From Stegostoma tigrinum (lineage: Eukaryota), in the NCBI RefSeq assembly GCF_030684315.1, contig NC_081383.1, positions 26,147,942 to 26,211,941 of the forward strand: a DNA stretch of 64,000 bases. Reading direction: 5' to 3'. Within the stretch, counting starts at the first letter, position 1. The number at the start of each line of letters is the position of its first letter. Under the pieces are notes generated by a model. That model was not told the origin of the DNA. It saw only the letters and a list, made by a program, of their open reading frames with translations, and ran no database searches. Shown here piece after piece: positions 30,561-64,000 of the stretch. The translations under genes were made by a program, and so were the position numbers.

Positions 30561-30672
30561 GTGCTGAGCTAATCTTGTGTGAAGGTGGGACTGCAGTGAT
30601 GAAATAGTCAATTGTTGGTTTGTTTGGAAGTTGTCAAAGTTGCTAGATATTGTATTTTTATTTCTCTTTCAG

Positions 30673-30714
30673 ACAATGCAGTTGATGTTACAGATGAATT
30701 TGCATTTTTGGAAG
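30673..30714 (+). CDS. POLE4: POLE4 exon 3
   Basis: tttcag|(D)NAVDVTDEFAFLE G|gtgagt, 42 nt. Confidence 0.93.
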
Positions 30715-31011
30715 GTGAGTCCTTCCTCCTTATTTAACAGCCATAACGTTGTTTTGTTTTGTTGTTTTCTCCTGTCAGTCCTTCCTACACCAGTGGAGAA
30801 GGCACTGCCGCTGCAAGGTGCAGCAGATAGAATTACCTTGAGTCGAGCTACTGATGTGAAGGCTGAAACTAGTTGACTTCCACAGTCTGTCAAGACTGTT
30901 GTTAATCTTTCACATGAACAATTATTGCATTAATACAATGTACCCTCCATTCACTCAATTACTTTTCTAATCTATTTTTAAAAGCACCTTTAATCAAATT
31001 GTCGGGACCAT

Positions 31012-36077: not shown

Positions 36078-36481
36078 TTAATGGCACCCACAGCTTCCGG
36101 CAACCATGTCATCATACTGTTTCAGGACCACATTTTCATCATCATCAAAATAGAGAAGATTAATGGAGAAAAGTTTGTCTGGGATACAGCACGGAGAAGC
36201 TACATCATTGGCTAGCTTAAGAGCATTGATAATGGACTGAACAGTGGCATGGTTGGTAGGTCTCATATTTTTGCCCAGTGGGAAGACGCATGCTCCTTTA
36301 CAATGATAAGCATTGTACCCTCGAGGGGAGATAATCCAACCAGACCAGCCAATCTCTTCAAAGTCTACATATAGATGATGTCTCTGACATCCTTGGAAAT
36401 GTAAAGACCTTGTGTTCCGGTTCTGGCTTGCTTTGTTCTGAAGAATTCTGTGAGAGATAAATGGATTCTCTGTGCCCATAT
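36078..36481 (-). CDS. admp: Anti-dorsalizing morphogenetic protein, exon 5 (mature TGF-beta/BMP domain)
   Basis: cag|AT..; furin site RNTR, then the 7-Cys domain CQRHHLYVDFEEIGWSGWIISPRGYNAYHCKG..MRPTNHATVQSIINAL..PCCIPDKLFSINLLYFDDDENVVLKQYDDMVAGSCGCH, diagnostic of ADMP. Confidence 0.95.
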
Positions 36482-37951
36482 CTGTAAGTGTGGAGTATAA
36501 TGAGTTAAGTCATCTTATGTATTCAGGGGCCGTTTAAAAACAAAAATCTTTACTTTCCCTCAAGATACCAGCACCATCTGTTAAAAAAGCAAATGTTGCA
36601 GATTTTGGACATTGAATATTTCCAGCATCTTTCTATTAGCTTGCTTTTTGGAGAAAGAAATAAAGTTAATTTGACCTGAATCTTGTACTGCGTTTCAAAG
36701 GAGACTGTCAGACCTAAGTATCTGCTGTTTTTATTAATGACCTATGTATTGAGTATGTCAGCAAGGATTTAATTCTTTTTAATTCTCATACTTAGTGTCA
36801 CCATGACTGAAACCAGTTTTTGGAAACTGGTTGGATCCTGCTGTGCTGGATTATGGTAATACTTCAAGTGAGAAATCTTTAGATTTGTTAGCTTAATCTC
36901 AACCAAGCATTACTATAGGGAGGTAGAGGGAGAGAATAGCTTTGACCTTTACAGCTGTGAGAGTGCTAACAACTTAAACCAACCATGGGTTTACCAAATA
37001 CATTAGCTCTCTGGCTCAAAACCGTCAAGTGTGCACTGTGTTGCAGTTATGTTTTCAAACTCTTCCCAGCTAACCCTGTAAATGACTCAGTCGGCTTCCT
37101 TGCTTTTTCTGGCATGGTATTACCTTACAGCAACACGTTGACTGTTACAACTGACTTTACTCCGGTTCCTGTTTTGTAGAAGTCTTTAAAGTAGTAGAGA
37201 ATGAACCCTGTTTCAATCAATTCACCCAATGTAAAACCATGTAACTTTCCCTCGCTGTGAACAGTTTGGCAGCGCTTTTGAGTGTACTTGCAGTAGATGG
37301 ACTGTTGCTGTTCAGGGTGGCACCTCACCATCTTAGGGCAGGGCAACAAATGCTTGTTTTGCAAGTGACACCATTATTCCATGAAAGTATTAAACGTTAG
37401 TTCTCCAGTGCTTCACCCAATCTGCCAATGTCCTCTGGATGTGGATTAAATGCGAAAGCAGTTTAAAATTTTAAAAAGCCAATACATATCTGCATGAAAT
37501 GTAGGGTATTAATTAGGATTAGAAATAAATAGCTACCGTGTAAGGTGAAGGAAAATGAATTGGCTATCCTGTCTTTTATAGTAGTAAAGTGTTTTATAGC
37601 TTTTCTCTGCCTCAGTCTGGCAGTCCTGAGTGTAAATAATTTAGTCTGAAATAATGTAACAAATTAGGAACTAGAGCTATAACTTTCCATGGTGTGTACA
37701 GCTGAGCACAATACCAATGGATGCATGAAGCCTTCAAACCATCAGGAATTTAAAGTTCGTTACTTTTTATATAAATGAATAGAATTATAGTTTTGACTCT
37801 TTAAATGAATTTGAAAGAAGACCATCCATAAGGGACCTAACTGAGATTGAAAACAACTAGTTGAAGTATGATTCTTATGAGACCTTTCTGTAGATGTGTT
37901 TACAGCGATAAGGTGGATCATCATCTTTGGTACCAATCATAAGGACTTCAC

Positions 37952-38147
37952 CTTTTAATGACGAGGAAGTAGTAATTCCTCTCCTCTCCTCATCTGTGAA
38001 GAGGACCAGCATTGGTTGCTTGCTGCTGTGATGGTCTCTTGCTGTGGCAAAGCGGACAAAATGATTATTTGTCTGCTGCCCGGCCAGAGTTTGCACAATG
38101 ACCATCAGGCCCTTGTTGCTCTTTTTATCGTGTGTCCATGTGTACAC
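37952..38147 (-). CDS. admp: ADMP exon 4 (prodomain)
   Basis: cag|VYTWTHDKKSNKGLMVIVQTLAG..VRFATARDHHSSKQPMLVLFTDEERRG..K G|gtgaag, 196 nt. Confidence 0.92.
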
Positions 38148-40555
38148 CTGCACAAATAAAGAAATCTTTCATCATCTAATGCAGCAAGTGTTTCACACAG
38201 AGTAGGATTCTTGTGTCATATCTCCTGAGCCACTGCTAAGTCAACTGTGGCAGATGTCAGATACAGAACGAAACTTGGAATGAGAAAAGGGAGTTATGTG
38301 CCTTCGCCTTCAATCTCAGAACAGTAGATCCTACTGCACAACAGTGAGATTTCCAATTTTCACTTGCAAGACAGACACATCTGAGGTTATTGCGCCTAAT
38401 GTTGCTTACCCATCTAGAGCGAGGAAAATCCTGAATGAATTGTCAGTATTCTTGAAAAACAAGTTTTTGACCTCCATTACTAGAATACCTGTTTACTTTG
38501 TGTGATGTTCATATCTCTCTTGTTTTGCACATTTTAAATCTCTGTTCTTGTTTTAGTATCCTGCATACATTGGATTAATTTTATCAAATATATTGTTTAA
38601 TATCATTAAATTTATGCGAGGCCCAACTCAGTACTTCAAGGTTTTAAAAAGTCATTCCTGATGAACTCGATTTGTTCTGAATTAATCTCATGACTTTACT
38701 TTCTACCATTCCAGTAGATTAAATATTCCCTTCTTTAAAACCAAAACAGTGCTGGGCATAGCTTCAGATCAGGATGCTATTTATTTCACAGTTTTAGCAC
38801 TATACTTTCTGACATAATTGGTTACAGAATATAACTAAGCATTCTGTTTTCTTTATAGTTAATGGTTTACCATGTGTGAAAAGACTATTGTTGCTCTGTC
38901 TTTCTGCTTTACCATACCTTACCCAACAGTTGTAGGAAATTTATTTTTCAATCACCCCTGCAGCCTTGAGGTGAGAATTAATTTGGTGCCAAATCATAGT
39001 TGGGTACCTGCTATTGAGCCACAGATGATTAATCCAGTCTAGTTTACGTTCTAATTAGTTTGATTATTTCTATACAGCATTGACTGACATGAGCTGTTTA
39101 TCCTCTCAGTCAAATATAAATTTGTTAATGTGGTTCATTACACCAGATCGCAGCTGGCATCTGTATGCTGGTTGGTCTGCACAGTGTGCCCTAGCATATT
39201 GCTAAAGGCTGAAGTATGGTGTGGTTACTCTACAAATAAAATAGCATAACAAATAAGAATAATAATATTGTCATGTGTGTAACCAGGAGAAACACCTTCC
39301 TAACTTCTAACCCGTCAAGGTATAACAAGATTCTGTGCATTTCCTACAATATATTTTTCTACTTTATACTAAAAGGACTGTAAAGTTTAACTTTTAAAAG
39401 TTCTTTTGTTTTTCTATTTTGTATTTCGACACCTTTGTATCTGAGATGGGGACTTTGTATAGTTTACACCGTACTCCTATATTTGTGTACTTGAGTACAC
39501 GTAGCAATTATAAGTTACTCCTAGAAATCTAATCAGCATTAGTTCACCTACTGCTGCTGATATAGCAGCTATAGGTTTGATTATTCTCACAACTGTAATG
39601 ATCAATAGCAGGACATAGATGTTTCTGTGGAACAAAAGGGCATTCAGTTTTTGAATGGCGGGTTCTCAAAGCAGTCCAGTCAGTCCCGCTTCCCCCGTTT
39701 GATCCCTAGCTGTACAATTTTCTTTGGCAATCATTTGGTTGTTTCCATGTCTACCACACTCAGAGGCAGCATGTTTCTGGCTATTACCACTGGGTTTAAA
39801 AAAAGTCATCTTCTCATTCTTATGTGTTCCATAGACCTTGTACCATCAGCTATGGGGAAGTGTTTGTATTTTCTTAGCTTATTTAATCAAATTGGGATCT
39901 TGATTCCACTATCATTTCCAAGGAGAACAGCCCAAGCCATTGCAATCTACTTTGTAAATAATCTCCTCTGTACCCTGTTAATGGTCTTCCCATCTTTTAA
40001 GTGCCATGACTGGAACTGGACACTACTGTAATTATGGTCTAACCAGAGCATTCAAAGATTGAGTGTAACCTCCTGTATGTTTAATGTAGGACTTTCAAAG
40101 AGCTGATAGAAAAAGTAATGTTTGTGGAAACTTGCAATTTTAACAGTAAACTCTTATTTGCATAGACCATTTAAAATAATTTACATTTTGTAGTGTATCT
40201 GCTCTTAAGATTGTGGAGGCCTTACAAAAGGAAAATGTATTTCCTTCACAGATTATTCTACACTAATATTGCAAGGTCCTGTCCAAGCCACTCACTACCT
40301 TGACTTGGAAATATATTGCTTTTCCTTCACTGAGACTAGATCAAAATTCTAGTCTTCCATCCCTGATAACATTATGGGTCTATTAATATGTCATGCCAAA
40401 TAAATATGGCATCACTTTGTGGGGAATGGTACAAGTCAACATGGTCCCTGTTGCAACTTGAGAGGGCATAGTGATTAGTGATCGTGTGGATGTGGTCATG
40501 TTTCAAAAATTAATCCTCTAAGTATTATTGAAGGTTATGGTGCACTGTAACTTAC

Positions 40556-40678
40556 AGCCTGGGTGATTGTGAAGACCTCCCACGTGCTGTCATGGACTGC
40601 TAGTACTCTGGATGACAGCAATCGTTGTCCCTCTGCTGTAGATGTGTTACTACTGTCCAGTATCTGGTAGACACTGAC
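40556..40678 (-). CDS. admp: ADMP exon 3 (prodomain; absent from the ORF track)
   Basis: tag|VSVYQILDSSNTSTAEGQRLLSSRVLAVHDSTWEVFTITQA|gtaagt, 123 nt, phase 0 at both ends. Confidence 0.92.
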
Positions 40679-41420
40679 CTAAAATAGAGTTCACAGCTCA
40701 GCCAAGTTGTTACTGCTAGTTATATTTCAAACAAAGCCAGAAAACAATCAAAGTGAAATCATTGCACTGCTCCTGACCGATTAATTAGAAATTACAATTA
40801 CGAAGGACTCGTAATTACTGAGCTCGGTTTGATTCATTTCTTAGTTCTTCCTTCTTTCCTGTCAGATACTTTGGGAGAGGAGAGAGAAGGTGCAATATCG
40901 AAGTTAGGCGCAGTCTTGACATTTTTGCGTTGTCTATCACACTAATTTCCAATGAACCTTGTATATAAAACGTGGCAGAATCAGTGTAAACAATTGGGGT
41001 CCGATGATCAAATTCAGATATTTCTTTTCTGAGGTATAGCAGCTGATGTTTTAGGGCAGTTCCTCATTCATAAATAGAACGTACACTTGACACTTTTGGG
41101 GCCAAGTGTAACATTGTGGAACTGGATGAGTGAGAACGAGGAGCTTCTCATATCTATTTGGGAATAATACGGAGAATATTGTTAAACGGCCCTGTCAATT
41201 CACCCACGGTGGGAGGACTTCTTAAACTGCAGAGAAAGACTTCTGGATCTTTGTTTTTTTCGGAATTACGTTCTCACTTTTGTGCCCCTTTGAATTTCTT
41301 TCCGGCTTACTTGCCTCCGCCCCTCTCACTTTCTTAGACTTCAAGACAGTCTGAGAGAAACTGTGTTCTGTCCCTTACTGTGGGTTAGTGTCGATCTGAA
41401 GAGCCTCGCACCGCCCTTAC

Positions 41421-41563
41421 CTGACAGAAATGTTGCCTGTGGTGCAGTGTGTCCCGAAAGAGCCGACCTCTCAATTTGAACAGATGCAGCTCAGCGGAAA
41501 GAATGGTTTCGCTTTTAGCCACACTGGACAGGTTGAAAAAGAACTGGAGTTGCTGACTGCGAC
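41421..41563 (-). CDS. admp: ADMP exon 2
   Basis: cag|(S)RSQQLQFFFNLSSVAKSETILSAELHLFKLR..HFCQ|gtaagg, 143 nt. Confidence 0.93.
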
Positions 41564-41660
41564 CTGGGAAAGAAAACATGCAAAGATGAGCAAGGGAAGG
41601 TTGGGGTTGGGGTTATCAGTAACTAACACTTGAAGCGACTTGGAACCGCTAGGGTCTCAC

Positions 41661-41940
41661 TTCTATCCAGGAAGCTGCGCACCGTGTTTCCCACCAGTAG
41701 ATCGGGTTGCTTAGTCACTCCGTCCACGTCTGCCACTGCGTTGTAAAGGTCCAGCATATACTGAGGGGGCTGGCGGACTCTGTGAGGGGACTGCGGGGCA
41801 TCCACCATCCCGAACACCTCTAGCAGCCTCTTTAGTGCCTGGGAGCGGACTTGCTGGTTGTGGCCAGGCAGACTTGCGGCGCAATTCGGCCGCAGAAATA
41901 TGAGGAGGAGCAGTAGCGAAGCTCCGAGTCTAGAGCACAT
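41661..41940 (-). CDS. admp: ADMP exon 1 (signal peptide and prodomain start)
   Basis: MCSRLGASLLLLLIF signal peptide; ALKRLLEVFGM..QPPQYMLDLYNAVADVDG..GNTVRSFLDR A|gtgaga. Joined CDS is 1146 nt (381 aa) with no stops. Confidence 0.93.
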
Positions 41941-44900
41941 GGCACACCGTCAGCAGGGAGTGGAACAGCGGTCATCGAGGCAGCCTCAATATAATGGAAA
42001 CCCAACCCCCTGTGCAGCCTATTAGAGTGGAATATGCAAACGGACAATTAGTGAGTGTGAGGGGTTCGGTCTCTCCTGCTAACGAGGTGTGACTCCAAAG
42101 CCAGGAAGGACCTTGCTTTTCAACTGTAATACACATTGACCCCGGACTCACATGGAGGACCTCCCTTCCGATTGTACTGACACGGTCGGGGCCACTTTCT
42201 AAGCCCTTGCGTGATTAATTTTCGCTAATGAAACCATTAACTGTACAAACAGAGGGTGCTGACAGGGACAAGGTCAGAGAAATAGCTTTGGAAGAATTGT
42301 TAAAGAGTGGAAAGGGTAAATAAAACTCAAGAAAGACTGGATTAGCAAAATACCTCAGGTCAGAGAGCTATCAGATGTTTAATTAGAAACTGTTGGGATA
42401 AGGGCAAAAGTGAGTCCAGTTGTTGTGATAGTCGTATGTAGATACTGTGATGTAAAACGAAAGGATCGTTTCTTTCTCTCTAAACCTACAAGCAATTGCT
42501 GTTCAGGTGGGCACTACAGAAACACAAAGCATGAGGAATCTGTGGGACAACATTCTGTTGCATTTCACGTGTAACAAGTGTAATGACATTCGGTCCATCG
42601 TGTATAGGAAGAACTTTTGAATGAAGGACAATTTTTTTTGGAAGGAAGGAGAAAAGATACAAATCTGTATACTCTTCTGCGATAGGGGTGATTGCAGTGT
42701 CAGCCCACTTCGTCTAAAGAAGCTGCCAGATTGCAATGTGCCCTTTCACCTCCTTTGACTTTCCATGTCTTTTCATCTACCCCAGGCTTCCTTTACTCAA
42801 ATGCGCTGGAGCATTCAAATAGTTTGTATTAACATTAGATGGGAAATGAAAACCTGTATAATGCTATTCATGGTGCAAAACTCCTTTTACAGCTAAGGAG
42901 GTACATTTGAAGGCCAGGATAATAAAATGTGAGGCTGGATGAACACAGCAGGCCCAGCAGCATCTCAGGAGCACAAAAGCTGATGTTTCGGGCCTAGACC
43001 CTTCATCAGAGAGGCCTTTTGGTGGCATGACTGGCAACATACCTGTAGCAAGAACCTGGCAACAAATCATCTCATTTAATAGTACTGGTTGAAGGATATA
43101 TATTGGTCAGTTATTGGGAGAATTATACTGCTGAAGTATAACAAGAGGTGTTTAGTTATCAGATCCTCTTGGTGCCTCAGAATGAAATAGTTTTTTGCAT
43201 TTGAAGAAACTGCGTTTTTTGCAACTGTGGAGAAGTTTTGACAAATGTCAAATTTCCAAAGCTTCATTTGTTTGTTTACCTCTGCACGGACTGTACAGAA
43301 TTGGTTTAGAATATTTGTATATATTTCTGGATATTTTTTATGAATAAAGTGTATATTTTGAAAAGTGGTTCAGGTGATAGATCATTACAGACATGCAGTA
43401 ACAGCACAAAAGGAAAAAAATTGTGCACAGTAGAAGTTGGTCTTAAAAACAAAGTGCTGGAAACAGCAGATCTGGCAGCATCTTGTGACAATAAATTGCT
43501 AATGAATGGCTGATCATTTCTTTGGATTACGATCAAGAATGAATATTACTGCTTTCAGTTTATGCTGCTTGGCTTTCTAAAAAACTTTTTATATTTATGC
43601 TTCAAAGTGTTGCCTACAAAAGCTTAAATTACTTCTTTGAATATATCTGTGGAAATAGTGATTTGTTAAGGTGATAGGGCTCCAGGGGCAGCAAAGAAAA
43701 AGTAAAGCAAGAGAGAACAATAGCTAGATCATAAAGACAAACAAAGCCTGACAACAAACTAAAAGGTATGATTATATCTGAAGTAGAAAGGGGTTTGAAG
43801 AGTAGGGCTGTATGTCAGAAAGAATACAAATGAAATGGACTTCCGAAACTGTCTTTATCTCTTATGATCCTATGTCTAATGGGAAAGAACAACTTTGGAC
43901 ATCTGTTGCAAAAAAGTACCTCTAATGTGACACGAATGAGAATCACTGCTTCAGAGCCAGGATGAACCAATCTTCAAAGATCAGATTCAATCCGATTTGC
44001 TCCTTGTATTTCTTACTCACAGATTTGCTCTCTGTGTATTGCGTGGCTTGGAGGTTTGCACTGTTCTTATTGTTTACAGCAGGGATGTTGAGCCTTTTTA
44101 CACAAGGGGCCACATTTCAATTTCTCCCTCACTTTAGGGGAGGGGGTGTAGTTCAGTGAGCAACTTTCAGAAAGATGATGTTTACCAAAAACCTATTGTG
44201 GTAAACATCATGTGAATCTCAGAAAGTCAAAAGCAATGAAGTAATAATTTAACTGAATAATTGAAAAAAAAGGTCCATTAAGAAATGCCAAGGGCCAGAG
44301 CTAACCAATGAAACCTCTCTTTGTGTCCATGGAATTCAACAGTAGGAGTTGGAAGTGGGTGTCTCCCAGTTCGTAATTTATTTTGTCCTGCAAGCTTTAT
44401 GGATAAGCTTTGCAAGGTGGAGGGTGGGAAGAAAAGGTAAAGGACAGGTATATGTGTGTCTGTCTTTTTCACTGATCTACCCATCCTGAAAGATCCCCTG
44501 GTAGCTCATTATTGAGCCTATCAGCAGCAAACATAGGAGAAAACTGCATCTTATTGGAGTAGCAGCTCCTAGCAGAATGTTCCAGTTACACTTATCTCTA
44601 TATGTAAAAAGGCTCAGCATGCAGTATATCTGGGCAGTTGCGGCCTGTTGGCCTAGCCTAGGCAGGAATAGGCTATTTAACATCTTGAGCTTTTTTGCTA
44701 TCAATTTAGGACTGATTTGGCACATTTCATTTGATGATTTTATTGAATAACCTTGACAATCTCAATTTTAAAAATTGTAATTGCCCCAACATTGTAGGCT
44801 TTTGAGGAAAGGAGTGCCACATTTCAGCAAACTTAGTATGAATAAATATTTTGCTTCTGAATGGCCAAGCAACATTTTTCAGATTGTCCTGAATTTCTCA

Positions 44901-46129
44901 GCCAGAGGAAATCACTTACCTATATCTGCAAAATCAACACCAGAACTAAAATAACTCTCACTCTTTTAAACTCAAGGTAATATAAATTAACCTTTATGCA
45001 ATTTGACCTCATTACTTAACCTTTTAAGCTGAAATAGCATTTTGATTATCTGTTCTGTAACCCCTAACAGGTTAATGCATCCCAGACACGTTGTACACTG
45101 GATCAAATTGTAAACTTGCTGGCATGCAGAAGTCATCATATTTTCTTATCATAGGTTAAATCTTTTGAAAGAGATGAAATAAAGTTTCTGGGTTTCCTTT
45201 ACACTGCTCACTAAATGACAAGGGATGCTCATTCCTCACCACTTTATAAAGGGTCATTTGAGGCCATTTGAAAAAAAAGAGAAGTGCTAAAATAGCAGAT
45301 CCCAGCAATATCAGCATACAAAAGAAATTTATCAGGCCAGGCTGGAGAATCTTTTTCTACTGGAAGAGTGCAAGACCTTCTGTTAACCCACAGTTGGGAA
45401 TCTGAATAATAATGGCAGTGAAGAATTTCCTCACTGGTAGAAAATTAGGGACTTTATGATCATAACCCAGGCCTGATTTCTAATACATCTATTTGTTTCT
45501 TGCTAAACGCCACACTCCTGGCACAGCTTCAAAATAGTTAGACAATTATGCCTTCATTTTAGGGAATCCCTGAGGATTAACAACGTCTAGCTTCCTCTCC
45601 AGTTTGAAAGGCTCTAAAATGCTGATTAGACCAATGTGTGATTGGCACACTCTGTCATGTGTGGGACAGATTGTTCATATGGGTACATATTTGGAGATTT
45701 GTGTTACTCTCTTCAGCACTTCAACTTCCCCTGAGCACATTCCTGGTCAAATCACTGGATGTGCTGGCTGCCCTCATGAACTAGCCTTCTCCTTCTTCAG
45801 TTATAAGCCAGGGTTTACCATGAATTGGTAGGGATGTTTGATCTTTCAGGGTAGCTTTGAGGACACTCCTCAAATGTTTTAGCCATTATCTTAGGAGACT
45901 TCTGCTATGACTGTGAGTAGCTGTAACTGGAACTCCAAGTAGAACAATTGCAATGAGCAATTTGAATGATGTGACCCATTAGCAGAAACTGTTCTTTAGT
46001 GACTAGCATCTTGATGCTGGGCAGGTTAGATCCCAGATTTGATCCTTGGTGAGAAAAACTTTGCATGGTGTTTACAAGGTGTAACCAAATTAGTGTAATA
46101 TCTGTAACACTCATTATTGCCTCATAACT

Positions 46130-46720
46130 GTATTGGTCAGTGCATTGAGCTTAGGAGTTGGGAGATCATGTTGCAACTGTGCAGGACATTAGTTAGGTCA
46201 CTTTTGGAATACTGTAGGAAGGATTTTGAGAAACTTGAAAGGGTTCAGAAAAGATTTACAAAGATGTTGCCAGGGTTGAGGGTTTGAGCTATAGGCAGAG
46301 TCTGAATAGGCTGGGGCTATTTTCCCTGGAGCGCCAGAGGCTGGCAGGGGTGACATTATAGAGGTTTATAAAATCATGCAGGTCGTGGATAAAGTGAATA
46401 AGCAAGGTATTTTCCGTGGGGTGGGGGAGTCCAAAACTAAAGGGCGTAGATGAGAGGGGAAAGATTAAAAAAGGGCCTAAGGGGTAACTTTTTCACACAG
46501 AAGATGGCATGTATTTGGAATGAGCTGCCAGAGGAAGTGGTGGAGACTGGTACAATTACAACATTTAAAAGGCATCTGGATAGGTATATGAATAGGAAGG
46601 GTTTAGAGGGATATGGGTCAAATGCTGGCAAATGGGACTAGATTAATTTAGGATATCTGGTCGGCATGGATGAGTTGGACCGAATTGCCTGTTTCCATGC
46701 TGTACATCTCTATGACTCTA
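46130..46720 (+). mobile_element. CR1 LINE 3' fragment
   Basis: GNFFTQKMACIWNELPEEVVETGTITTFKRHLDRYM C-terminus and (ctatgact) tail. Confidence 0.85.
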
Positions 46721-47599
46721 ATTACTGCTGTTTGTTACGTATGAATAACACCAACAGTTATATAATGTCAAAATTTGCAGATGGCATGAAACCTAAATGT
46801 AATAACCACTGAGGAGCAATGTTTCCTCCATGTTCTCTGGCCGTGCACACCGATCAGTGTGCCAAAGCATCGACTTCTGGAATTTCAGAGTCACTGCCAT
46901 TCATGGACCTTGGGGGTCTGTGCAGAAGGAAAATAAGCAGAGGAATATCACTGAGGAGGCTAGTAACAGACTTAAGGAAGGCAGACAAACTGGAAAATAG
47001 GAAGCTGAATTTTAACACAGATGTGTAAAATGATGCATTTTGCAAAGGATGAATGAGGCAGTTTATATACTCAATGCTACAATTTTAAACGTTGCTTGGA
47101 AAGGTGATGGAAACAGGTTCAATTTTAGCATTCATTATGGAATTGAAAAAGTACCTTTACAGGGCTATGGGGAAAGAGCAGAGAAATGGGACTGATTGAT
47201 TGGTTTGTTCAAAGATTTGGCACAGGTTTAATAGGCTAAATAGTCTTATTTGTGCTACATCATTCTGTAATTCTGTGATAATCAAGAGAAATATCTGCCA
47301 AATATTTCTTGGCAAAAGAGAACACTGTGCATTTTTCTGGAAGAACACCTTTAAGCACTTCTCTTTTCACCTAATTTTGTTACTTCAAAGGCTAGTCAGC
47401 AATTTGTTCTTTTTCTTCTGATATTCACATTGAAATCCAGCCTGGGAAAAGGGGACATTTCATCTCCCTGTCAGGGATATAGAGCAGTTTAGCCCTAATT
47501 CTGAGTGTCTCCATTCAATCTAGTTCAAATTGGTAGTCTCACTTAGAAATTTGGACATCAGAAGTAACAGTTGAGGATGATCTGAGGTTAAGGTAATGG

Positions 47600-47872
47600 T
47601 AGTAATAAAGGAGATAGTAAGAACTGCCGATGCTGGAGTCAGAGACGACACAGTGTGGAACTTGAGGAACACAGCAGGCCAGACAGCATCAGAGGAGCAG
47701 GCAAGTTGATGTTTCGGGTCAGAGCCCTTCTTCAGAAATGATCTTCAAAAATAAATTTTCTTCAGAAAACCTGATTTCTGAAGAAGAGTCCTGACCCGAA
47801 ATGTCAGCTTTCCGGCTCCTCTGCTGTGTTCCTGCAGCTCTGCACTGTGTTATCTATGATAGTAATAAAGGA
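47600..47872. mobile_element. Penelope-derived hairpin element with two opposed hammerhead-like motifs
   Basis: Inverted arms at about 47640-47738 and 47775-47855; 13-bp direct repeat tagtaataaagga at 47600-47612 and 47860-47872. Confidence 0.75.
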
Positions 47873-48814
47873 CTTTTAATTACATACTATCTTTCATGTT
47901 TCCACAACACTCCCAAGTGTTTTATAGCCATTGTAATTTTTAAGTTTACTCTGTTGTAATGTAGGAGGATTTCAACTGTACATCAGGTATGGCTGTGTCA
48001 TAAATACATTCTCTGGAAATGGATTGACAGTTTTGATACATCTGGTGTTCAAGGTATCTCCTTCCATGCACTAATGAACCCGGGTTGTACCTGAACTGTG
48101 AGTGTTTGCTGATGACAATGGAGGATAACATAAGAAATAGTCAATTTGTTGTCAGTGATGTTCATCAGCTTAAGCACAGAAGAAGAACCAAATGCCCAGA
48201 TTTGCACTGATTAAACTCAACTGAAAAGTTCCATTACAAAAGACTACACACTGCAGACAATAAATGCTATAAATGGAGTATGGTTTCACGTTGCTTCCAT
48301 GAGTTTTATTCATTTGAATTATCTGATCGTCTTAAATGTTCCATTACAGAAACATTTCAGGACCTTTTCAGCGAACCACTGCTTGTGAACAGTTTTAAAG
48401 GACCATTCTGCTGCGAGCTAGCTGTCAGCATCCAACAATGATGTTCACCGGTGGCAGGAGGAAATCAGTAAAACTTAATTTAGTTATCACATTTGATTAG
48501 TTATATTTTTATATCCATCAATTAGTGTCAAGAACAAAAAGGTTTCATTAAGCAATTCTTACTTTATTGGTTAAACATCATTAATCTGAAATTGAATAAA
48601 TGAGTTGAGGTGTCTCTGTGGTAGCTAACTTATCAGAAACTGCAACTTGAAAGACATAACAATGAAGTCAATACAGTATATGGTGGAAATACTCAAGGAG
48701 TCTGGCAGTTTTGTGGAACAAGAAACAGTTAGTGTTTCAGCTCCAGGGATGGGTAGTAAAAACTGACCTAGCCATGCTTAACTAAATAATTCAAAAAACT
48801 TTTAGAATACCACG

Positions 48815-50956
48815 TACAATTCTGGTCGGTCTTCTCTCAGAAGGATGTTGTTAACATGAAAAGGTGCAGAAACGATTTATAAGGATGTTGTTGGGATTGG
48901 AGGATTTGAGCTATAGGGAGAGGCTGAATAAGGTGGGGCTTTTCTCCCTGAAGTGTCGGAGACCAAGGGGTGACTTTTTTGAGGTTTATTAAGTCATGAA
49001 GGGCATGAATAGGGCAAATAGCCAGGGCTTATTTCCCATGGCATGGGAGTCCAAAACTAGAGGGTGTAGGATTAAAGTGAAAGGGCAAAGATTTAAATAG
49101 GACCTGAGGGGTGACTTTGTTTTGCGATTTATTGTCACGTGTATTTTTCCAAAAAAGCACAGTGATAAGTTTTATGAGTCACCATATCACAATGCCTAAC
49201 TTAATGACCGATGTCAAAAATAGTAAAATTTCATCACAGTTAAATGAATGACTCCTAGGTTTCGGGAATGCTGGAAAACTAGACCAAGACCACCATGCAG
49301 TGCTGGGTCGAGATAGCCCTGCTATGCCAAGACAAGACCCCCACACTGGGCAACTGGAAGACCCTTGCTTTGGAGGCAGCTTTTGGACAAAACCTGTACC
49401 ATGGGACTAGACTTTCAGGCCGGTCTGCTGGAATAGAACGAAGAACAAAGAACAAAGAACAAAGAAAATGACAGCACAGAAATGGGCCCTTCGGCCCTCC
49501 AGGCCTGCGCCCATCCAGATCCTCTATCTAAACCTGCTGCCTAATTTCCAATGATCTGAATCCCTCTGTTCCCTGCCCAGTCATGTGTCTGTCTAGATGC
49601 ACCTTAAATGACGCTATCATGCCTGTCTCTACCACCTCCGCTGACAACGTGTTTCAGGCACCCACCACGCTCTGCAGAAAGAACTTCCCACGCATATCTC
49701 CCTTAACCTTTCCCCTCTCACCTTGAAATCGTGACCTCTAGCATTTGAGCCCCTCACTCTGGGAAAAAGCTTCTTGCTATCCACCCTGTCTATACCTCTT
49801 AATGATTTTGTAGACCTCAAATCAGGTCCCCCCTCAACCTCCATCTTTCTAATGTAAATAATCCTAATCTACTCAACCTCTCCTCATAGCTAGTGCCCTC
49901 CATACCAGGCAACATCCTGGTGAACCTCCTCTGCACCCTCGCCGAAGCATCCACATCCTTTTGGTAATGTGGCAACCAGAACTGTACACAGTATTCCAAA
50001 TGTGGTCGAACCAAATTCCTATACAACTGTAACATGACCTGCCAACACTTGTACTCAATGCCCTGTCTGACGAATGCATGCCGTATGCCTTCTTGACCAC
50101 TGTATTGACCTGCGTTGCCTTCAGGGTACAATGGACCTGAACACCCAGATCTCTCAGTGTATCAATTTTCCCCAGGGCTTTTCCATTTCCCGTGTAGTTC
50201 GCTCTTGAATTAGATCTTCCAAAAAGCATCACCTCGTATTTGCCTGGATTGAACTCCATCTGCCATTTCTCCTCCCAGCTTTCCAATCTATCTGTATTGT
50301 GCTGCATTCTCCGACAGTCCCCTTCACCATCTGCTACTCCACCCATCTTGGTGTCATCTGCAGTGACACCCAGAAACCATCGAAGAAGATCTCCATACCG
50401 TGATAAGAACGCCACTCAAGGTCGAGACCATCCCTCTTGGGCAAGACCGCCACATCGAGCACCACCACGCTAGGAGACTGCCCCGCCAGGTATTAGGCTA
50501 ATACTGCCAATCTGGGCTGTTGAAAGCTACCTTGTTTCTGGGCCTGGGTCAGAGAAGATGCCTTCCATTGGTGTCATTAAAAGAAGGTAAGGTACCATAA
50601 TAATTTGGAGTTTGCTGTGTGTAAATCCTCCTTGCCTCACCCCTTGTAAAGGGAGTCTATAAACTCCATCCCTGTCAGTCCAGAAGAGACATTCACAATA
50701 TTCTCTCTCTCTCTTTAGGCACAGAATGACCACACAGACAGTGGTATATGAATAGAACGAGATGCTAGAGGAAGTGATGGAGGCGATAGAATTACTACAC
50801 TCAAGAGGCATCTAGATGGGCATATGAACAGAAAGGATTGAAAGGGATAGGGGCCACATGCTGGCACATGGGACTAGGTCAGAATGGGATGTTTTGCCAG
50901 CACGGACGAGTTAGACCGAAGGGTCTGGTTCTGTGCCGTATGACTTTATGATTCTA
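48815..50956 (+). mobile_element. Old CR1 3' fragment split by nested insertions (pieces at about 48815-49117 and 50745-50956)
   Basis: CR1 sequence stops at gacctgaggggtgacttt and resumes at cacacagacagtggtatatg..gaacgag..gaggaagtgatggaggc in the same orientation. Confidence 0.65.
49437..50362 (-). mobile_element. Younger 5'-truncated CR1 LINE
   Basis: ADDTKMGG RT motif, WQMEFNPGK, LYRNLVRPHLEYCVQFW..RVQRRFTRMLPG, and a (ttctttg)n tail at 49437-49468. Confidence 0.9.
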
Positions 50957-51102
50957 AAACAATGGTCGATTGTCATCCTTGAGTGGCGTTCTTATCACGG
51001 TATGGAGATCTTCTTCGATGGTTTCTGGGTGTCACTGCAGATGACACCAAGATGGGTGGAGTAGCAGATAGTGAAGGGGACTGTCGGAGAATGCAGCACA
51101 AT
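50296..51102. repeat. 126-bp inverted duplication (50296-50421 and 50977-51102)
   Basis: Arms are reverse complements with one visible mismatch; explains the duplicated MAFLSRYGDLLRWFLGVTADDTK ORFs on opposite strands. Confidence 0.9.
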
Positions 51103-53000
51103 TTTGTCAGAGTTGAACAAAGAAAATGTTTCTGTAAAAGTCTTTTTTTCCCCTTTATTCATTCAATGGATGAGGGTGTCACTGGCCAGGCCAGCATTTA
51201 TTGCCCATCTCTAATTGCCCAGAGGGCAATTATGAGTCAACCACATTGCAGTGGGTCAGGAATTGTAAGTAGAACAGACCAGGTAAAGATGACAATTTCT
51301 GCCCTAAAGGACATTATTCAACCAGATGGGTTTTTCTCACAATAGGCAGTGGATTCATGGTCATCATTAGACTCTTAAATCCAGACATCTATTGAACTCA
51401 AATTCCACCATCTGCTGTGGTGGGATTCAAATCTGGGTCCCCAGAATATTACCTGGGTTTTTGGATTAACAGTCCAGCGATAATACCACTGCCTCCCCCT
51501 TTATTTATTAACACAATAGAGGTTATTTACCGTCTGATGCATGTGGTATAAATAATCGTGTCACGCACGTCACCTTATCAGGCTGTTTGCACTTGCTCAC
51601 TATGGTTTGCTGCCACCATCGTCTTGTTGAGTAGGGATACACAGGAGCATATTTGGGAAACCAGTTGCTACTAAAGCAAAGAGGCTGTTGTCCTTGATGA
51701 GATGTGTACAGTTTCTAGCATGCGATAAACCGCATGTCACACTGAAGTGTTAGACATTGTTACAGAGACTATGAAGAGGACATGAATGGTTACCCTAATG
51801 CCCCTACCATGTCTGTATGACTTCATCATTGTAGGTGGTCCTTGAAGCACTCCACCATAATAACCCTTTCAGACCCTACATCCTTATGCAACAGTAATGT
51901 TTAATGTGAAACAGATGGATCAACATATTGAATACAGAGCTATTGCCGCTCAATCAAGAGTAGAACAGCCGTTGAGAACAGTCCTGTGTCGCTTATTTTC
52001 TTTCCTTATATAATTGCTTTTAAATGGAATCAACCCAACTTAGTACATTCAGCCCAATCGCAGTTGCTACACATGGAGCTCAGTGCGTGGGCCTGAAATT
52101 CTAACTGGGCCCGAGCGAAAGGTCATTACTGGAGGATCTGATGGGTTAGAATCTGGGCTCCATTTCAAATCTGCCCATACTCTTAAGAACTTTTCCAAGG
52201 ATTCAAACAGGGTCAATTCTACATTTGTCTTCTGCCATGCTAAGTCAAGTAACCTAGGCAAATCCAAGACTTCTGTTTGGTAGCAAAACAAATTCTAGCC
52301 AGAAGCTGTCATGAATCTCATTGAAGTTCCAGGAGAGGACCTAGAAAATGTGTAGCCATTAATAGATTGCAGAGAGGATCAATTACTTTCTGGAACTTCC
52401 CTTTGGAACTGAATATTTCATCACTGCACAAGTCACTGGGTCCTTGGCTTCCTATCCTGTCAGAACCCAGCTTACTCACAGGTTGCTCGAATGAGTGCTA
52501 TTGAGCTGTTTACAGTTGTGGGCCTCTGGCTCCAAGTTTGCATTTTACTCCAGTTATTTGATTAGCGAGCAAGTCAAAGACTCAATACCTAGTTTGTGCT
52601 GAGCTAGCAATATTTATTAATTGATCTTCCTGCCCTGAAGAAAGTGTGAAGAACATAACTAGGGCTTATTGCAGTTGGCTCAACAGAAATCTCTCTAATA
52701 GCTCTTGCTGGGATCCAGGTGAGGATAACAATTGGATAATGATTTGCAGAAATCAAAATCATGGGTGAGGTAACCGTGGCTTTGAAACCCATTCAGTTGT
52801 CTGGAAAAAGAGCAGTCCACAATCCATATAAAAAGGAAGACATGACGCAAGGCAGTTGATTGGCTGTTAGCGTTGTGGTAATCTCTACTTTTACTGGTTC
52901 TGCAATGTGGCTGTGAACTGGATATCTGACAACTGACAGCATTTTCCTGCATTAATGATCACTGTTGGTGTAATTCTACTTTCTGTCTCCATGTTCACTA

Positions 53001-53139
53001 TTATATCGTCCCATGGCATTTGCCGAATTTGATGAACTTTCCAGGTCAGCTCCTGAATGCGAGAGTTTCATATTCCTGAGGGGAACAACCATTCGATGAG
53101 CTGTCTTCACAAATCAAGCGCTGGTCCTTCTGAGAATTC
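53001..53139 (-). pseudogene. pnhd: pinhead terminal exon (disabled)
   Basis: tttttttgag|G AAT.. translates (R)NSQKDQRLICEDSSSNGCSPQEYETLAFRS*PGKFIKFGKCHGTI*, resembling the recalled Pinhead C-terminus (C.PQ.YE...FRSR.G...CKC). In-frame TGA at 53048-53046; acceptor is GAG. Confidence 0.75.
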
Positions 53140-53265
53140 CTCAAAAAAAAATGGGACGAGTTATCTACATCTTCGATAAAGAGAACAGATTTCACTTATG
53201 GAACTTTGGGTAAGTATTAGCAGTGAATAGGGGACATAACTTGAAACTTTGACAGTGAGTACCTC

Positions 53266-54949
53266 TAAGATGAATATGAGATTTAGGATGGAGAGCAGTA
53301 GCGATATTTTACAAGAGCTCATAAGGCTATTGAATGCACTACTAGTACCAGGATTAAAGCACAGACCATAGTGTATATTATGTACAAGTTTCGCCAAAAC
53401 TCTTGCAAAAATATTAATGGATTAATCAATATTTCAACACATCACAATCTTGTCAAAAATCCAACCAGCCTTTAAGTACAGTACATTCAAAACGCAGCTG
53501 AACAGTTACTGCATCACCGTCTTTCATAAATGTCCTTTCAACTCACCAACTGACTATCTGCAAGAGCTAGAATTACACAGGCCCCCTTAAGTTGAAGTAA
53601 ACCAAACTCAAAAAGACACACAGATCATGGCAGGAAGGTCAGCATCCTAGATTTCATATTCTGAAACAGACCTGTAAAACCAAGCTGAACTGTACTGTTA
53701 AGTTTCCACAGAATATAAGAAATCAAATAGCAATAAGTGATATTTTCTGCACAGTAGGACAATTGCAGAATTGTTCCTCTCAATAGAAATTATTTAAAAT
53801 TGTCTATAATAATAATAATCTAAATATTATATCTCTACCAGAGTGTCAAGCATAAGTCATTTACAGAGGTTAGATGTCTCTTTTGTTGACTTGCACAAAG
53901 CTGGATACCTCAGTAAATTCCACAGAAATTGGATACTCCTGAGAGAAATACATGAAGATTGGATACAGTACCAACAAATAATGTTGCGTATAAACTGTAT
54001 TTTGCCTCTAACTTTGTCTTGACTTGCTGAAGAACATTATATTGTTTATTCTGTGTAAGGTAAATGTCACATTTTTAAATCATGTTTTAATACTGTAAAA
54101 CCTATGGCCCAATGTCTATAGTACTGAATAGAAAGATGAGGTATATCATTGCAATTAAGTGAAGGCTACCTTGCACACTAAAAGTCTGGAGATTTTAGTT
54201 GAACATAACAATGGGAAGGATCTTGTACATTCAACATAAAGATCTCACTAATAATTTAAGGATCTATGGATATGTGAGCCTTCAAAAGAATTTCCAGTGG
54301 CACATCACTTCGGCATGTTTGTATTCCACTGACACGATTTTAGCATGGCAGTAATTTAAGCTGATACTTTCTCTGAAATAGTGATCCAATGAACACTTTT
54401 GGAGTGCACTGAACATTCTGCTAATTATCTTGTGATATCTTCAGATAGCTTTGCAAGAAAGGCAGTATGTAAATCTTTTCAATAAAGCAATAAAAGAACT
54501 CTGATTCTTAATATCATAATAAAATAATGGATTACCTTTGGCTTTTGTTTTTCTCTCTTGAGGTTTCTATTTCTGTACTACTGTTTCTTATTTTAGCATT
54601 AAAGCAAATTCACTTAATCCCTTGTGCCAGCTTTGTTTCCAAATCCATTTAATTCACTTTCTTTTGAGCACCTAACCAACTTGCTTTTAATGTTGACATT
54701 GACAGTAGAATTTCCCCAGAGATTCTCCTGATCTCCCTCTGTAACTTTGCCAGAAATTCAGAGAAATAGCATAAACAGCCACTTAAGCTGTTGCTGTGGC
54801 ACATCCATTAATGTTTTGGCGAAACTTGTACATAATATACACTATGGTCTGTGCTTTAATCCTCGTACTAGTAGTGCATTCAATAGCCTCATACGCTTCT
54901 TGTAAAATATCACTGCTGTTCTCTATCCTAAATCTCATATTTAATCTTA
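53266..54949. repeat. About 135-bp inverted repeat pair (53266-53400 and 54813-54949) in the last pinhead intron
   Basis: Direct comparison: the inner ~75 bp has one mismatch and overall identity is roughly 90% by eye. Confidence 0.85.
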
Positions 54950-55337
54950 TGTTCCCTCATTTTGAACCCTCAATCTGGAAAAAGATGTTTTCCATTAATT
55001 AAGTTCTATCTTTTCATGACAAAAATTAATAAATTAAGTCATATTGAACTTTCTTCAAACACAGCTAAAAACTTGCATTTTTCATCACATTTGCCTCCAC
55101 ATTTGTATTTTCTTGGCAGGCAGGCAGTGTCCTGTTAAACCCTCCTTGTATCCTCTATTGTCTTAAAAACTTTACTAAAGTGTGAAACCAGAATCTGCTC
55201 AAAATACTTCTGCTATGATTTTACTATGGTTTAATATACCAGTGCACCTTGACTTTTGTACTCTCTATCTTGAGGTAGAACACAGCATGCTATTGGCCTT
55301 TTACTGGCCTATGTTGTTTGAGGTGGAGCAAACCTGA

Positions 55338-55595
55338 ACTCCTAAATTTGGCCAAGATAACAAAGTGTGGAGCTGGATGAACACAGCAGACCAAGCAGCA
55401 TCTCAGGAGCACAAAAGCTGACATTTCGGGCCTAGACCCTTCATCAGACTCCTCTGATGAAGGGTCTAGGCCCGAAACATCAGCTTTTGTGCTCCCAAGA
55501 TGCTGCTTGGCCCGCTATGTTCATCCAGCTCCACACTTTGTTATCTTGGATTCTACCGCATCTACAGTTCCCATTAGCACTCCTAAATTTGGCCA
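55338..55595. mobile_element. Penelope-derived foldback element with 17-bp target-site duplication
   Basis: Arms 55352-55448 and 55453-55549 are near-perfect reverse complements around a 4-nt loop; actcctaaatttggcca occurs at 55338-55354 and 55579-55595. Confidence 0.85.
55454..55482 (+). ncRNA. Minimal hammerhead ribozyme-like motif (representative copy)
   Basis: CTGATGA a GGG tctag g CCC GAAA catc: conserved CUGANGA and GAAA boxes around a short stem II, as in Penelope terminal repeats. Activity not demonstrated. Confidence 0.6.
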
Positions 55596-55837
55596 CTCTT
55601 GCTGACTGCAAGTACAGTTCATATTTTTGAAATACTTTTGCTACAGTGCAGGCAGAATTTGTCTCTTGGGTTTGGACCAAGTCTCTATGGGCAGCAATAC
55701 CAACTCATTTAGTGCCCAAATTTACCAGCTGTCATGACATTCACCAGGACATTAACATTAGCGAAACTCAGTATCAGACTATCTTTCGGAAAACATGTCC
55801 GTGGGGTGGGGAACATACCTGGACCAACCGTGCACAT

Positions 55838-55896
55838 CTGAAGTGACAGCCATTTCCTGCAGTACACACTCCCAAACATCTGCCAGTATTGATTTC
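55838..55896 (-). pseudogene. pnhd: pinhead penultimate exon (disabled donor)
   Basis: ttacag|EINTGRCLGVCTAGNGCHF(R), 59 nt, matching the recalled EIDVGRCLG.C..GN.CLLR. The donor reads AG|atgtgc instead of GT. Phase 2 joins the terminal exon correctly. Confidence 0.8.
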
Positions 55897-56006
55897 CTGT
55901 AACATTATCACAACAAAGAGGTTCGGTCACGACAGGAACTAATGTGATGCACAAAAGCCAAACACTGAGCAAACTGCAGCTGCTGAGTAATTAACACCTC
56001 CAGTAT

Positions 56007-56187
56007 CTTCAGGCCCTCTTCCTTCTCACCGCTGGAGTTAATGGTGATCACAAAGTAATACTCCACATGGGGCAGTCTGGAACAGTTCTGTCTCACCTCA
56101 CACAATTCCACAGTTTGAATAAACTCTAATCCATTTGGATTCTCAACACAACTGTTTCAAATTTGGTGGGTACACATCCCAAGCCAC
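56007..56187 (-). pseudogene. pnhd: pinhead internal exon (frameshifted)
   Basis: ctgtag|GT GGC: GLGCVPTKFETVV, 1-nt deletion near 56146, then ENPNGLEFIQTVELCEVRQNCSRLPHVEYYFVITINSSGEKEEGLK. Matches recalled CVPTKF..VE.PN..E.IQTV..CE....C.R.P.VEY....G.KEE.LK. The donor reads AAG|atactg. Confidence 0.82.
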
Positions 56188-62300: not shown

Positions 62301-64000
62301 AATTAATAGGCCATCAAGAGTATAAATGAAAAAGGCAGTTGGACAAAGATGGGGAGAACTAACTGCCAACTGCCAGAGTTAACAACTCCCAGCTCTCAAG
62401 AAAATTACTGGCTCTCACAGTCATCTCTAAATCTTAAAGAAAGCACCATCTAAATATCAAAGGCACCAATGGGACAACTAGTTTATATTTCTGACAGAAG
62501 AATTGTTGCAGAAGGCATTCCTGACAGAGTATTAACACAGAAGGCACAGAGCATTCCAGAAAACAAATAAACTGGCTGTAATTCTGAGACTAAATTCTAT
62601 TTTTTAAAATTTATTTTATATAAGTGTGACTTATATTTATTGGAACAGCTTAATCTTAGAATCTTGTTTTATTCTGGAATAGTTAGTGGTTAGAAGGTGT
62701 TTCCTCAGTTTAGTTAATTTGTTCACTGTTAGAGTTACATAACCAAATTGTTACTTGTTGACTGTAAAGAGAGAGTCAAGTTTTTTATTTTAGTTAATCA
62801 AAAGAAGTTGCTGAAAGACAAGTTACAGCAATTTTCACACTCCTTTTACAGATTATTAGGGTGAGGTGCTCCTCTTTAGGTGTTTCAATTTTAGTTCTTT
62901 GGGAGGGGAGTGGTCAAATTCCACTTTTAACAAATTGCTTCCTGGTCCACAAGCAAGGTGACCTTGACTCCTTTGAAAGTCTCTAGACCTCCCTCAAAAA
63001 CTTCTGTTTTTTTTTTAAAAGAACTCAAGCAGCCATTTTCTAATAAAAAAAATTGAGCTAATCTAGGTAAACCTTCCTCAACCAATTCTGCCCCATCAAG
63101 ATTGGGCTTGAACCTTTTGCTACAATTAGTGACAAAAGCAGCATCTGTTAATCATAAGAGACCCGAACCAAAGTTGTACCCTTAATCTGTAAGGTACGCG
63201 ATATAAATTGGTGGTCTAGCCAAGATCTTACACAAACTTAAGGGCTGGATTCCAAAGTAAATTTTGCTATTGACTGGTTCTACAATCACTGAAACAGCTG
63301 CACTAGAATCAACCTCCATTACAACCGGGTGACCATTTAACCAGACGTTTATTTTGATCAATTCTGATTTGGATGTTTTCAAGCAATTTAACTGTTCCAA
63401 ACCTTTCCAAGCTCTCCTGGATACCAGCCTATGAGTTATGTTACTCATTTTAAGTCTTGTGGGATTCTTGCACTGTCTTGAGTCGGCATACCAGCAGCAA
63501 CTACAATATCTTTCTGGCCTGGATCCTGAAGAAAATTTGAACCAATTAGTCAAGATTTGCCTTTGTTTTGGGTTTTGCTGTGGGCTGACCTGGAGTCCCT
63601 CGTCAGGAGATGTCCTGTGTAATTGCTTTCACTGTAGGGGTGTTCCCAAACTCAGTCAGACTGGGGAGGGTGTCCACTTCCATCGGAATACCCCGCAACT
63701 CTCATGCTCCACTTGCCACATTTTCCACTGGTAATGCCAGTTATCATGCCTTTTTGACACCTGGTTGTGCTTCAACTCACAGACACTTTAGCATGATTAC
63801 ATCATTAGTCCCACATACCAAACAGTCTCTCAGCATCTCATTAAGGGTTAAACCAAAGTCACATGCATCTGCTGGGCATCTTAACCTAATCAATAATGCC
63901 GATACAGATTTCACCTTATTCTTGAATTGCTAAGTAAAACCAATAGCGTCTCAGAATTATCAGTGGCTTGCGGTCATAACTCTTGAAAGGTTTTAAGATC
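59310..64000 (-). mobile_element. Decayed Gypsy/Ty3 LTR retrotransposon (gag-pol remnants), interrupted by an insertion at about 61960-62930
   Basis: Protease (VWLNGHPVVMEVDSSAAVSVI, about 63300), RT (WAALAVPILK; YLDDMLITG, about 61580), RNase H (RIQRWALILS) and integrase (GVSKMR..YVWWPGLDTDI..CPECQ) in Gypsy order, with many stops and frameshifts. Confidence 0.88.

Follow-up and report, generated by a model that had tools for sequence, protein, structure and literature searches.

A decayed, apparently still transcribed pinhead gene beside an intact admp gene in the zebra shark

In the zebra shark, Stegostoma tigrinum, the gene pinhead (pnhd) has decayed at its place directly upstream of admp, and admp itself is intact. 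Both lie on the minus strand of a 64,000-nucleotide stretch of contig NC_081383.1 (assembly GCF_030684315.1, positions 26,147,942 to 26,211,941), which is called the window throughout and whose own numbering is used here. We consider it rather probable that the pnhd remnant is a transcribed unitary pseudogene left in place, the loss of which was buffered by admp, and that neither the linkage of the two genes nor the RNA controls admp. On this reading, the coding function of pinhead would have disappeared in the lineage of carpet sharks, with the remains of the gene left at the ancestral site, and the old transcription unit would still give, in some tissue, a spliced, sense, polyadenylated non-coding RNA by way of cryptic sites near the decayed ones. 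As suggested by zebrafish genetics, admp would be repressed by bone morphogenetic protein (BMP)/Smad signalling and rise as BMP activity falls, so that Admp would cover for Pinhead and make its loss cheap; the dorsal restriction of admp would come from its own regulatory DNA.

The pinhead remnant and the admp gene

The locus shows both marks of a pnhd orthologue, similarity to pnhd proteins and a position directly upstream of admp. An 82-residue frame at 56156-55911, used as a query, picked out five of 23 candidate proteins, each of them named pnhd and each from a shark. When five intact shark pnhd proteins were compared with the window by tblastn, matches were found on the minus strand at 56188-55813 (E 1e-27 to 1e-30) and 53159-53007 (E 3e-8 to 9e-13), with no further pnhd match in the window (next best E 0.39). 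A pnhd profile search of the window led to the same places, everything else being no better than E 0.32, and Pfam gave no match even for intact pnhd (P0001, P0005). The remnant covers residues 191-321 of about 322, which correspond to the three last pnhd exons; residues 1-190, including the signal peptide, were found in the window neither by tblastn nor by the profile. The window ends 7.8 kb upstream, a stretch largely taken up by a decayed retroelement, and the 5' exons and the promoter of the remnant may lie outside it. Adjacent accession numbers of pnhd and admp in Carcharodon, Scyliorhinus torazame, Mobula and Latimeria fit the adjacency of the two genes and carry no strand information. 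The remnant consists of the following parts:

56007..56187, minus strand: pnhd remnant exon A, residues 191-251, 181 nt where 182 nt are needed; a one-base loss gives a frameshift near 56146
56005..56006, minus strand: donor of exon A, AT for ancestral GT; the Chiloscyllium punctatum model, which reads on through this intron, has Val where the window has Ile, and the ancestral donor was therefore GT
55838..55896, minus strand: pnhd remnant exon B, residues 252-271; acceptor intact, donor (55837-55836) AT, presumably GT in the ancestor
53001..53139, minus strand: pnhd remnant exon C, residues 271-321, with a premature TGA (53048-53046) and the terminal TAA (53003-53001)

The premature TGA of exon C stands where all eight shark proteins have Arg, which suggests a change from CGA to TGA. 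Exon C also carries a 15-nt deletion near 53036 and lacks Cys279 and Cys316, two of the nine cysteines common to eight sharks, coelacanth and Xenopus. Altogether, six lesions are found in 379 coding nt. The remnant cannot encode a functional Pinhead protein: its frame is broken by a frameshift and a stop, two of its splice donors read AT, and cysteines have been lost.

The admp gene, which follows downstream, is intact. Its five exons are joined via GT..AG introns to a coding sequence of 1146 nt, and the translation of 381 amino acids is that of P0122, Stegostoma tigrinum ADMP isoform X1. The product has the prodomain and the mature domain of this TGF-beta family member, and its nearest annotated relatives are ADMP proteins: it is 95.0% identical to that of the whale shark, 88-91% to those of three bamboo and epaulette sharks and 83-86% to those of seven other sharks.

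41661..41940, minus strand: admp coding exon 1, with the ATG at 41940, the signal peptide and the start of the prodomain; Pfam TGFb_propeptide, joined coding sequence identical to P0122
41421..41563, minus strand: admp exon 2, matching P0122 in the joined coding sequence, with AG/GT ends
40556..40678, minus strand: admp exon 3, 123 nt, matching P0122 in the joined coding sequence and skipped in annotated isoform X2
37952..38147, minus strand: admp exon 4, matching P0122 in the joined coding sequence
36078..36481, minus strand: admp exon 5, mature TGF-beta domain and stop; Pfam TGF_beta E 4.6e-35, 100% identical to Stegostoma ADMP
41941..53000, no strand: interval between the pnhd remnant and admp, with LINE- and SINE-like fragments (long and short interspersed elements), 11,060 bp from the terminal stop (53003-53001) to the admp ATG (41940)

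Isoform X2 lacks exactly the 41 prodomain residues of 40556-40678 both in the zebra shark and in C. punctatum, which points to a common exon skip. The LINE and SINE labels given to fragments of the interval do not derive from a repeat library; 20% of its 11,060 bp recurs elsewhere in the window. None of its 12 open reading frames of at least 75 amino acids had a Pfam match at the curated cut-off, and an Rfam scan of the window returned no matches. The identities, order and strand of the two genes, their distance of about 11 kb, the decay of pnhd and the lack of a recognisable gene between them, all of which had been proposed in a first-pass annotation of this DNA, were thereby confirmed. The same annotation had suggested that the locus could still act as a non-coding cis-switch, in which ventral transcription of the pseudogene represses admp, or alternatively that admp has been released from this control. 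Preserved synteny is no sign of function: the linkage needs no explanation by selection, because a pseudogene stays where the gene was unless it is rearranged, and any unitary pseudogene would show the same.

Fixation, age and rate of the decay

Four of 20 public sequencing runs (X2, X5, X10 and X15) were compared with positions 52000-56400 only. Contigs of X2 (organism A) cover 52000-55348 and 55534-56400, all lesion sites included, without a single difference; X2 may be the source sample of the window assembly. X5, which comes from another sample and study, covers 52027-53132 with the premature stop and the 15-nt deletion, again without differences. The disabling lesions are thus fixed in the zebra shark, as seen at all sites in X2 and at the stop and the deletion in X5. 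X10 (organism B, a related species that is about 6% diverged) provides one colinear contig of 5608 nt, for which 40 of the 233 substitutions and 12 of the 16 insertions or deletions were seen individually. Its piece over exon C shows only 9 gap letters in total, so that organism B must have the 15-nt deletion too, and the loss is therefore older than the split between the zebra shark and organism B. The piece over exons A and B is net 2 letters longer in organism B than in the window. Dating by the excess of amino-acid change was tried and proved too loose to say more than that the loss is older than the organism B split. X15 (organism C) covers 6 of 30 bins, nearly all of them repeat, and is of no use for dating lesions. 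A depth-2 contig of X15 at 54491-54733 has no differences from the window where organism B differs by 5-7%, probably because of contamination or mislabelling.

Over 122 columns, the remnant has 71-75% identity with eight shark pnhd proteins, whereas these eight are 80-95% identical to one another; its identity to the coelacanth and Xenopus proteins is 52%. Invariant columns are changed in 19 of 89 cases (including three X at breaks and three gaps), compared to 1-4 in leave-one-out controls. On a fixed tree, the branch of the remnant measures 0.26 substitutions per site versus 0.09-0.15 for four sister tips, the values for ADMP being 0.113 versus 0.062-0.111; on a free tree, the placement of the remnant had no support. 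Differences from organism B amount to 82/1275 in the last exon, 53/1037 and 61/880 in the intron and 52/819 in the piece over exons A and B (chi-square p 0.38), and the last exon, 6.4% diverged, falls within the 5.1-6.9% of the intron DNA. The 52 differences over exons A and B compare with 49 expected if neutral and 39 under coding constraint (p 0.03). The remnant evolves at the neutral rate, within the modest power of this comparison, and the flat divergence argues against a role that depends on its sequence at the scale of whole pieces. Non-coding conservation of the remnant, which the first-pass annotation had named as a possible sign of a residual role in cis, was not seen against organism B at this scale. 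Two lineage-specific insertions were tolerated in the last intron:

55341..55581, no strand: inverted pair of a high-copy short repeat, without counterpart in organism B, where the X10 contig joins 55340 to 55582
53275..53425, no strand: inverted copy (about 150 bp) of 54813-54941, without counterpart in organism B

The inverted repeat 53273-53400/54813-54941 was also considered as the two ends of a transposon, which is ruled out, as organism B lacks the left arm only.

Gene models of other species point to a wider decay. The C. punctatum pnhd model of 133 amino acids has exon A in frame, runs past the donor into the intron and stops there, and it has lost Cys226. The Mobula birostris model P0270 of 154 amino acids is confined to exons A-C and lacks Cys220 and Cys290; its accession stands beside that of admp. 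In each of the two models, 7 of 44 invariant exon A columns are changed, compared to 0-3 in controls. Both were found by the exon A frame search, which gave 32 matches, 8 of them looked up by name. Near-full or clean pnhd models were obtained from eight shark species and from no carpet shark or ray (profile search, best 120 of 188 matches, and cluster look-up), and ADMP is annotated in five carpet sharks and seven rays or skates. We take the eight species to span five orders other than carpet sharks. A Stegostoma pnhd protein appeared neither among the 5 frame-search hits nor among the best 120 of 188 profile hits nor among the 8 of 32 matches looked up. Such models serve as a pointer only, as some are truncated even in sharks whose sequence is clean (P0002, P0003), and fragments are possible among the 68 matches beyond the best 120. 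With this proviso, pnhd has probably decayed across carpet sharks, in one loss or several, and separately in at least one ray.

Three further observations concern the distribution of pnhd. None was seen from other rays and skates, although ADMP is annotated in seven species of this group, and an independent loss in batoids is possible. The chimaera Callorhinchus is absent from the best 120 matches for pnhd and likewise for ADMP, which may be due to annotation, ranking or loss. pnhd-like proteins are annotated in many birds, despite the statements that no expressed pnhd homologue was found in birds (PMC8753366) and that pnhd is among the genes missing in warm-blooded animals (PMC6871517).

A putative transcript of the remnant and the surrounding DNA

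The case for transcription comes from X5, which comprises 62.5 million letters of contigs that carry no strand, ends or level; neither this run nor any other of the 20 listed is on record as RNA. One X5 contig covers 52027-53132 at depth 300, and the bin depths of 6.28 and 161.2 have as their sole one-piece solution a second piece at 55819-55898 with a depth of about 308. These pieces suggest the following transcript features:

55819..55896, minus strand: extended exon B, a putative transcript exon deduced from the X5 bin depths, with a cryptic donor CAG/GTATGT 19 nt beyond the dead donor
51886..53129, minus strand: putative last exon of the transcript, beginning behind a cryptic acceptor CAG (53132-53130), its end projected 14 nt downstream of ATTAAA
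51900..51905, minus strand: candidate polyadenylation signal ATTAAA, a sequence motif near the projected transcript end

At one edge, the 80-nt piece takes in the AG of the exon B acceptor; at the other, it stops immediately ahead of the cryptic donor, which is a strong one. The long contig starts on CAG, 10 nt past the old weak acceptor, and this start at 53132 is exactly the one expected from the three letters that are common to the end of extended exon B and the end of the intron. On the minus strand, the background frequencies of such edge sites are 0.069 for AG, 0.054 for GT and 0.022 for CAG. The 141 unplaced letters of the long contig, which were projected colinearly and not seen, bring its end to 51886, 14 nt after ATTAAA, and this class of position makes up 3.4% of the region. 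X5 has no cover on exon A or the introns; this is what skipping of exon A, whose donor is dead, would look like, although an absence of cover is no proof. Only one upstream donor of strict consensus fits the X5 edge; it lies inside exon A, and the 5' exon is unplaced. The 15 joint rows displayed of 484 in X5 all stem from repeat, and none of them links the two pieces. X19 and X20, which belong to the same study as X5, contain next to none of the words of the locus and are not evidence either way.

The footprint thus fits a spliced, sense and probably polyadenylated RNA of more than 1.3 kb, which would end about 10 kb before the admp ATG. A lack of transcription at the remnant, which the first-pass annotation had named as grounds for abandoning a residual role in cis, is therefore not what X5 suggests. 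Since the putative last exon extends at least 1 kb into the interval, the interval is probably not silent. The spliced junction keeps the old frame up to a stop after 53 codons, and the longest ATG-initiated open reading frame has 85 amino acids in the part seen. As is required of a long non-coding RNA (lncRNA) derived from a lost gene, there is no sizeable open reading frame in that part of the transcript, its 5' exons lying outside.

As a whole, the window is gap-free vertebrate DNA with a G+C content of about 40%. Within the interval, in LINE-like sequence, a 141-nt inverted repeat (50281-50421/50977-51117) has arms that are 94% complementary and 555 nt apart, which could result from a local inversion or duplication. 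Upstream of exon A lies a decayed retroelement, which we take to be gypsy-like:

59320..63628, minus strand: decayed retroelement with reverse transcriptase and integrase pieces (Pfam RVT_1 E 1.8e-5, Integrase_H2C2 E 2.2e-8)

On the other side of admp, a POLE4-like gene at 27935-30730 on the plus strand converges on admp; its histone-fold Pfam matches are below the cut-off, and an exon present in two bird models named POLE4 matches it at 60%. A multi-exon protein kinase gene follows at 11768-19833 on the minus strand (Pkinase E 2.8e-35), which is probably nim1k-like, a name given by resemblance. According to PMC12111056, pole4, a nim1k-like gene, admp and pnhd lie together in teleosts as in the zebra shark window. 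The bird models named POLE4 (P0062 and P0117) are pnhd with a POLE4 exon fused in front. If these fusions mirror the gene order, pole4 would lie upstream of pnhd on the same strand in those birds, whereas it faces admp here, and the pnhd-admp pair would have been inverted as a unit.

Readings of the linkage and their significance

In Ciona, transcription of pnhd is reported to repress admp in cis (Imai et al. 2012, Science 337:964, as described in PMC6989304 and PMC8188501), and the tandem is reported from arthropods to vertebrates (PMC6989304). The zebra shark locus resembles that of Ciona in that pnhd lies immediately upstream of admp on the same strand in a unit that is apparently transcribed; it differs in that the protein cannot be made and the gap is 11 kb long and repeat-rich. 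As presented in PMC6989304, pinhead of zebrafish is expressed ventrolaterally in the gastrula, fish that lack it have a normal dorsoventral axis, with admp up and not spreading ventrally, and the seesaw of the two genes is due to direct repression of both by BMP/Smad1 through separate enhancers, the one of admp being promoter-proximal (-633 to -210). The first-pass annotation had ascribed an enhancer mechanism in cis to Ciona and zebrafish alike, of which the attribution to Ciona holds and that to zebrafish does not, as PMC6989304 gives Smad1 feedback in trans. Loss of zebrafish pinhead with an intact axis and raised admp suggests that the protein could be lost. The zebra shark shares the gene pair and its order with zebrafish, and compensation could make pnhd dispensable; however, zebrafish has both proteins functional and BMP/Smad1 coupling via GGCGCC, of which there is no exact match at 36000-64000 of the window (degenerate GC-rich sites could remain), and the longer Smad silencer pattern has no match at 36-64 kb either.

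Other parallels are partial. In Xenopus, Pnhd antagonises Admp, and Pnhd together with Chordin raises admp; one finding on the transcription of admp is stated to conflict with what the Ciona model predicts (PMC8188501). Mammals have lost both pnhd and admp, which was read as co-evolution (PMC8188501; ADMP loss PMC3296468); the zebra shark has likewise lost pnhd, but its admp is intact and conserved. According to PMC10869764, noggin1 is absent from most elasmobranchs examined, and pseudogenes are found at the syntenic place in sharks; the main text of that paper does not mention admp or pinhead. Both are early BMP-pathway patterning genes decaying in sharks and rays with pseudogenes left in place, but an intact-looking pnhd is found in eight shark species, and signs of its decay in carpet sharks and in at least one ray. 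lncRNAs that arose from lost protein-coding genes have been described, and selection on enhancers was proposed as the main reason why such regions are retained (PMC5577775). The zebra shark remnant, too, would be the syntenic remains of a lost gene that yield a spliced RNA; the mammalian cases, however, are defined by conserved transcription, and the zebra shark case comes from one run of one species in which exon homology is still plain.

If a switch of the Ciona type had survived, the remnant would be transcribed from its ancestral promoter in the ventrolateral gastrula, where it would take the admp enhancer or run over it and thereby keep admp dorsal, the protein function having been shed and the chromatin function kept. 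Such a switch is in line with the tandem same-strand order, with the fact that no gene has come between the two, with the exon-shaped X5 cover, three edges of which lie at splice dinucleotides and whose projected end follows ATTAAA by 14 nt, and with the mechanism described for Ciona. Nevertheless, we regard it as fairly unlikely: the X5 record names no tissue or stage, no constraint on the remnant was seen against organism B, and the first exon of the transcript lies outside the part seen and may be new. Moreover, the accessible parts of the vertebrate papers (PMC6989304, PMC8188501) show no effect in cis; Smad1 sites that belong to separate enhancers account for the seesaw in zebrafish, and in Xenopus admp goes up under Pnhd plus Chordin. 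The region could instead be kept for short admp enhancers in or around the last pnhd exons, the RNA being a by-product of active chromatin. The proposal of PMC5577775 speaks for this, as does the fact that the recognisable part of the remnant is the one nearest admp, both in the zebra shark and in the Mobula model. We think it unlikely, given the flat divergence by piece, the 40 organism B substitutions shown (of 233), which lie in 52039-52553 and leave no long clean block, and the promoter-proximal position of the zebrafish enhancer; the 3' bias may be an effect of annotation, as 5'-truncated models are also found in sharks with an intact-looking pnhd (P0002, P0003).

The decay could also be only apparent, caused by assembly errors or accompanied by an intact pnhd copy elsewhere in the genome. 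The search for copies was confined to the 64-kb window, and X2 may be the sample behind the assembly; however, X2 and X5 agree letter for letter at the lesions they cover, the 15-nt deletion is also present in organism B, assembly errors do not typically take the form of an in-frame deletion, a CpG-type stop or lost cysteines, and the protein matches listed include no Stegostoma pnhd, all of which makes this explanation very improbable. It is equally hard to believe that X5 is a DNA library (capture, amplicon or reduced representation), in which case the remnant would be silent and the synteny wholly passive. The kind and library of X5 are not on record, and no joint row linking its two pieces is among the 15 of 484 displayed, but three edges, the two of the 80-nt piece and the first of the long one, coincide with minus-strand AG, GT and CAG sites, the letters shared by exon end and intron end predict the start at 53132 exactly, and the two pieces are similar in depth (308 and 300).

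Several points weigh against the favoured reading of a transcribed pseudogene without control over admp. The unit seems to have gone on splicing and forming a 3' end for a long time after the loss of the frame; it shares the strand of admp and ends about 10 kb short of that gene, a layout that a switch dependent on transcription would require. If such a switch acts through transcription as such, the RNA sequence need not be conserved, and flat divergence is compatible with it. The divergence test itself was made on 4.4 kb, in a single pair of species and piece by piece, so that a short enhancer would escape it. The promoter and 5' exons of the remnant are outside the window seen. The zebrafish pinhead mutants, which are small deletions that in the opinion of the authors leave chromatin conformation unchanged (PMC6989304), do not test the cis model either.

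The claim of repression in cis rests, for animals, on Ciona, and the zebrafish and Xenopus papers account for the gene pair by way of the proteins and of BMP feedback. With small coding mutants, the protein and transcription cannot be told apart, whereas a lineage with a dead protein and a live unit separates both naturally; a broken pinhead beside an intact admp could thus test whether it is the reading of pinhead and not the Pinhead protein that controls admp. It is conceivable, at low probability, that in carpet sharks, and perhaps independently in rays, the protein is gone and the locus is still read from its old promoter in the ventrolateral gastrula, with admp held off in cis. If true, this would be the first vertebrate Pinhead-Admp switch to survive as pure non-coding transcription, and it would explain the linkage from arthropods to vertebrates. 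The embryos of bamboo and epaulette sharks are amenable to laboratory study.

No report of pnhd loss in sharks or rays was found in the literature, where supplements of genome papers, the synteny figures of Imai et al. or database annotation may already flag the locus, and the accessible parts of three reviews (PMC8034876, PMC8753366, PMC11226491) add nothing on sharks. Even if the linkage is passive, the zebra shark locus adds a case, seemingly not described before, in which carpet sharks, and probably rays, have lost an axis-patterning gene and kept admp. Such a loss runs against a strict co-evolution of the pair and parallels the loss of noggin1 in elasmobranchs.

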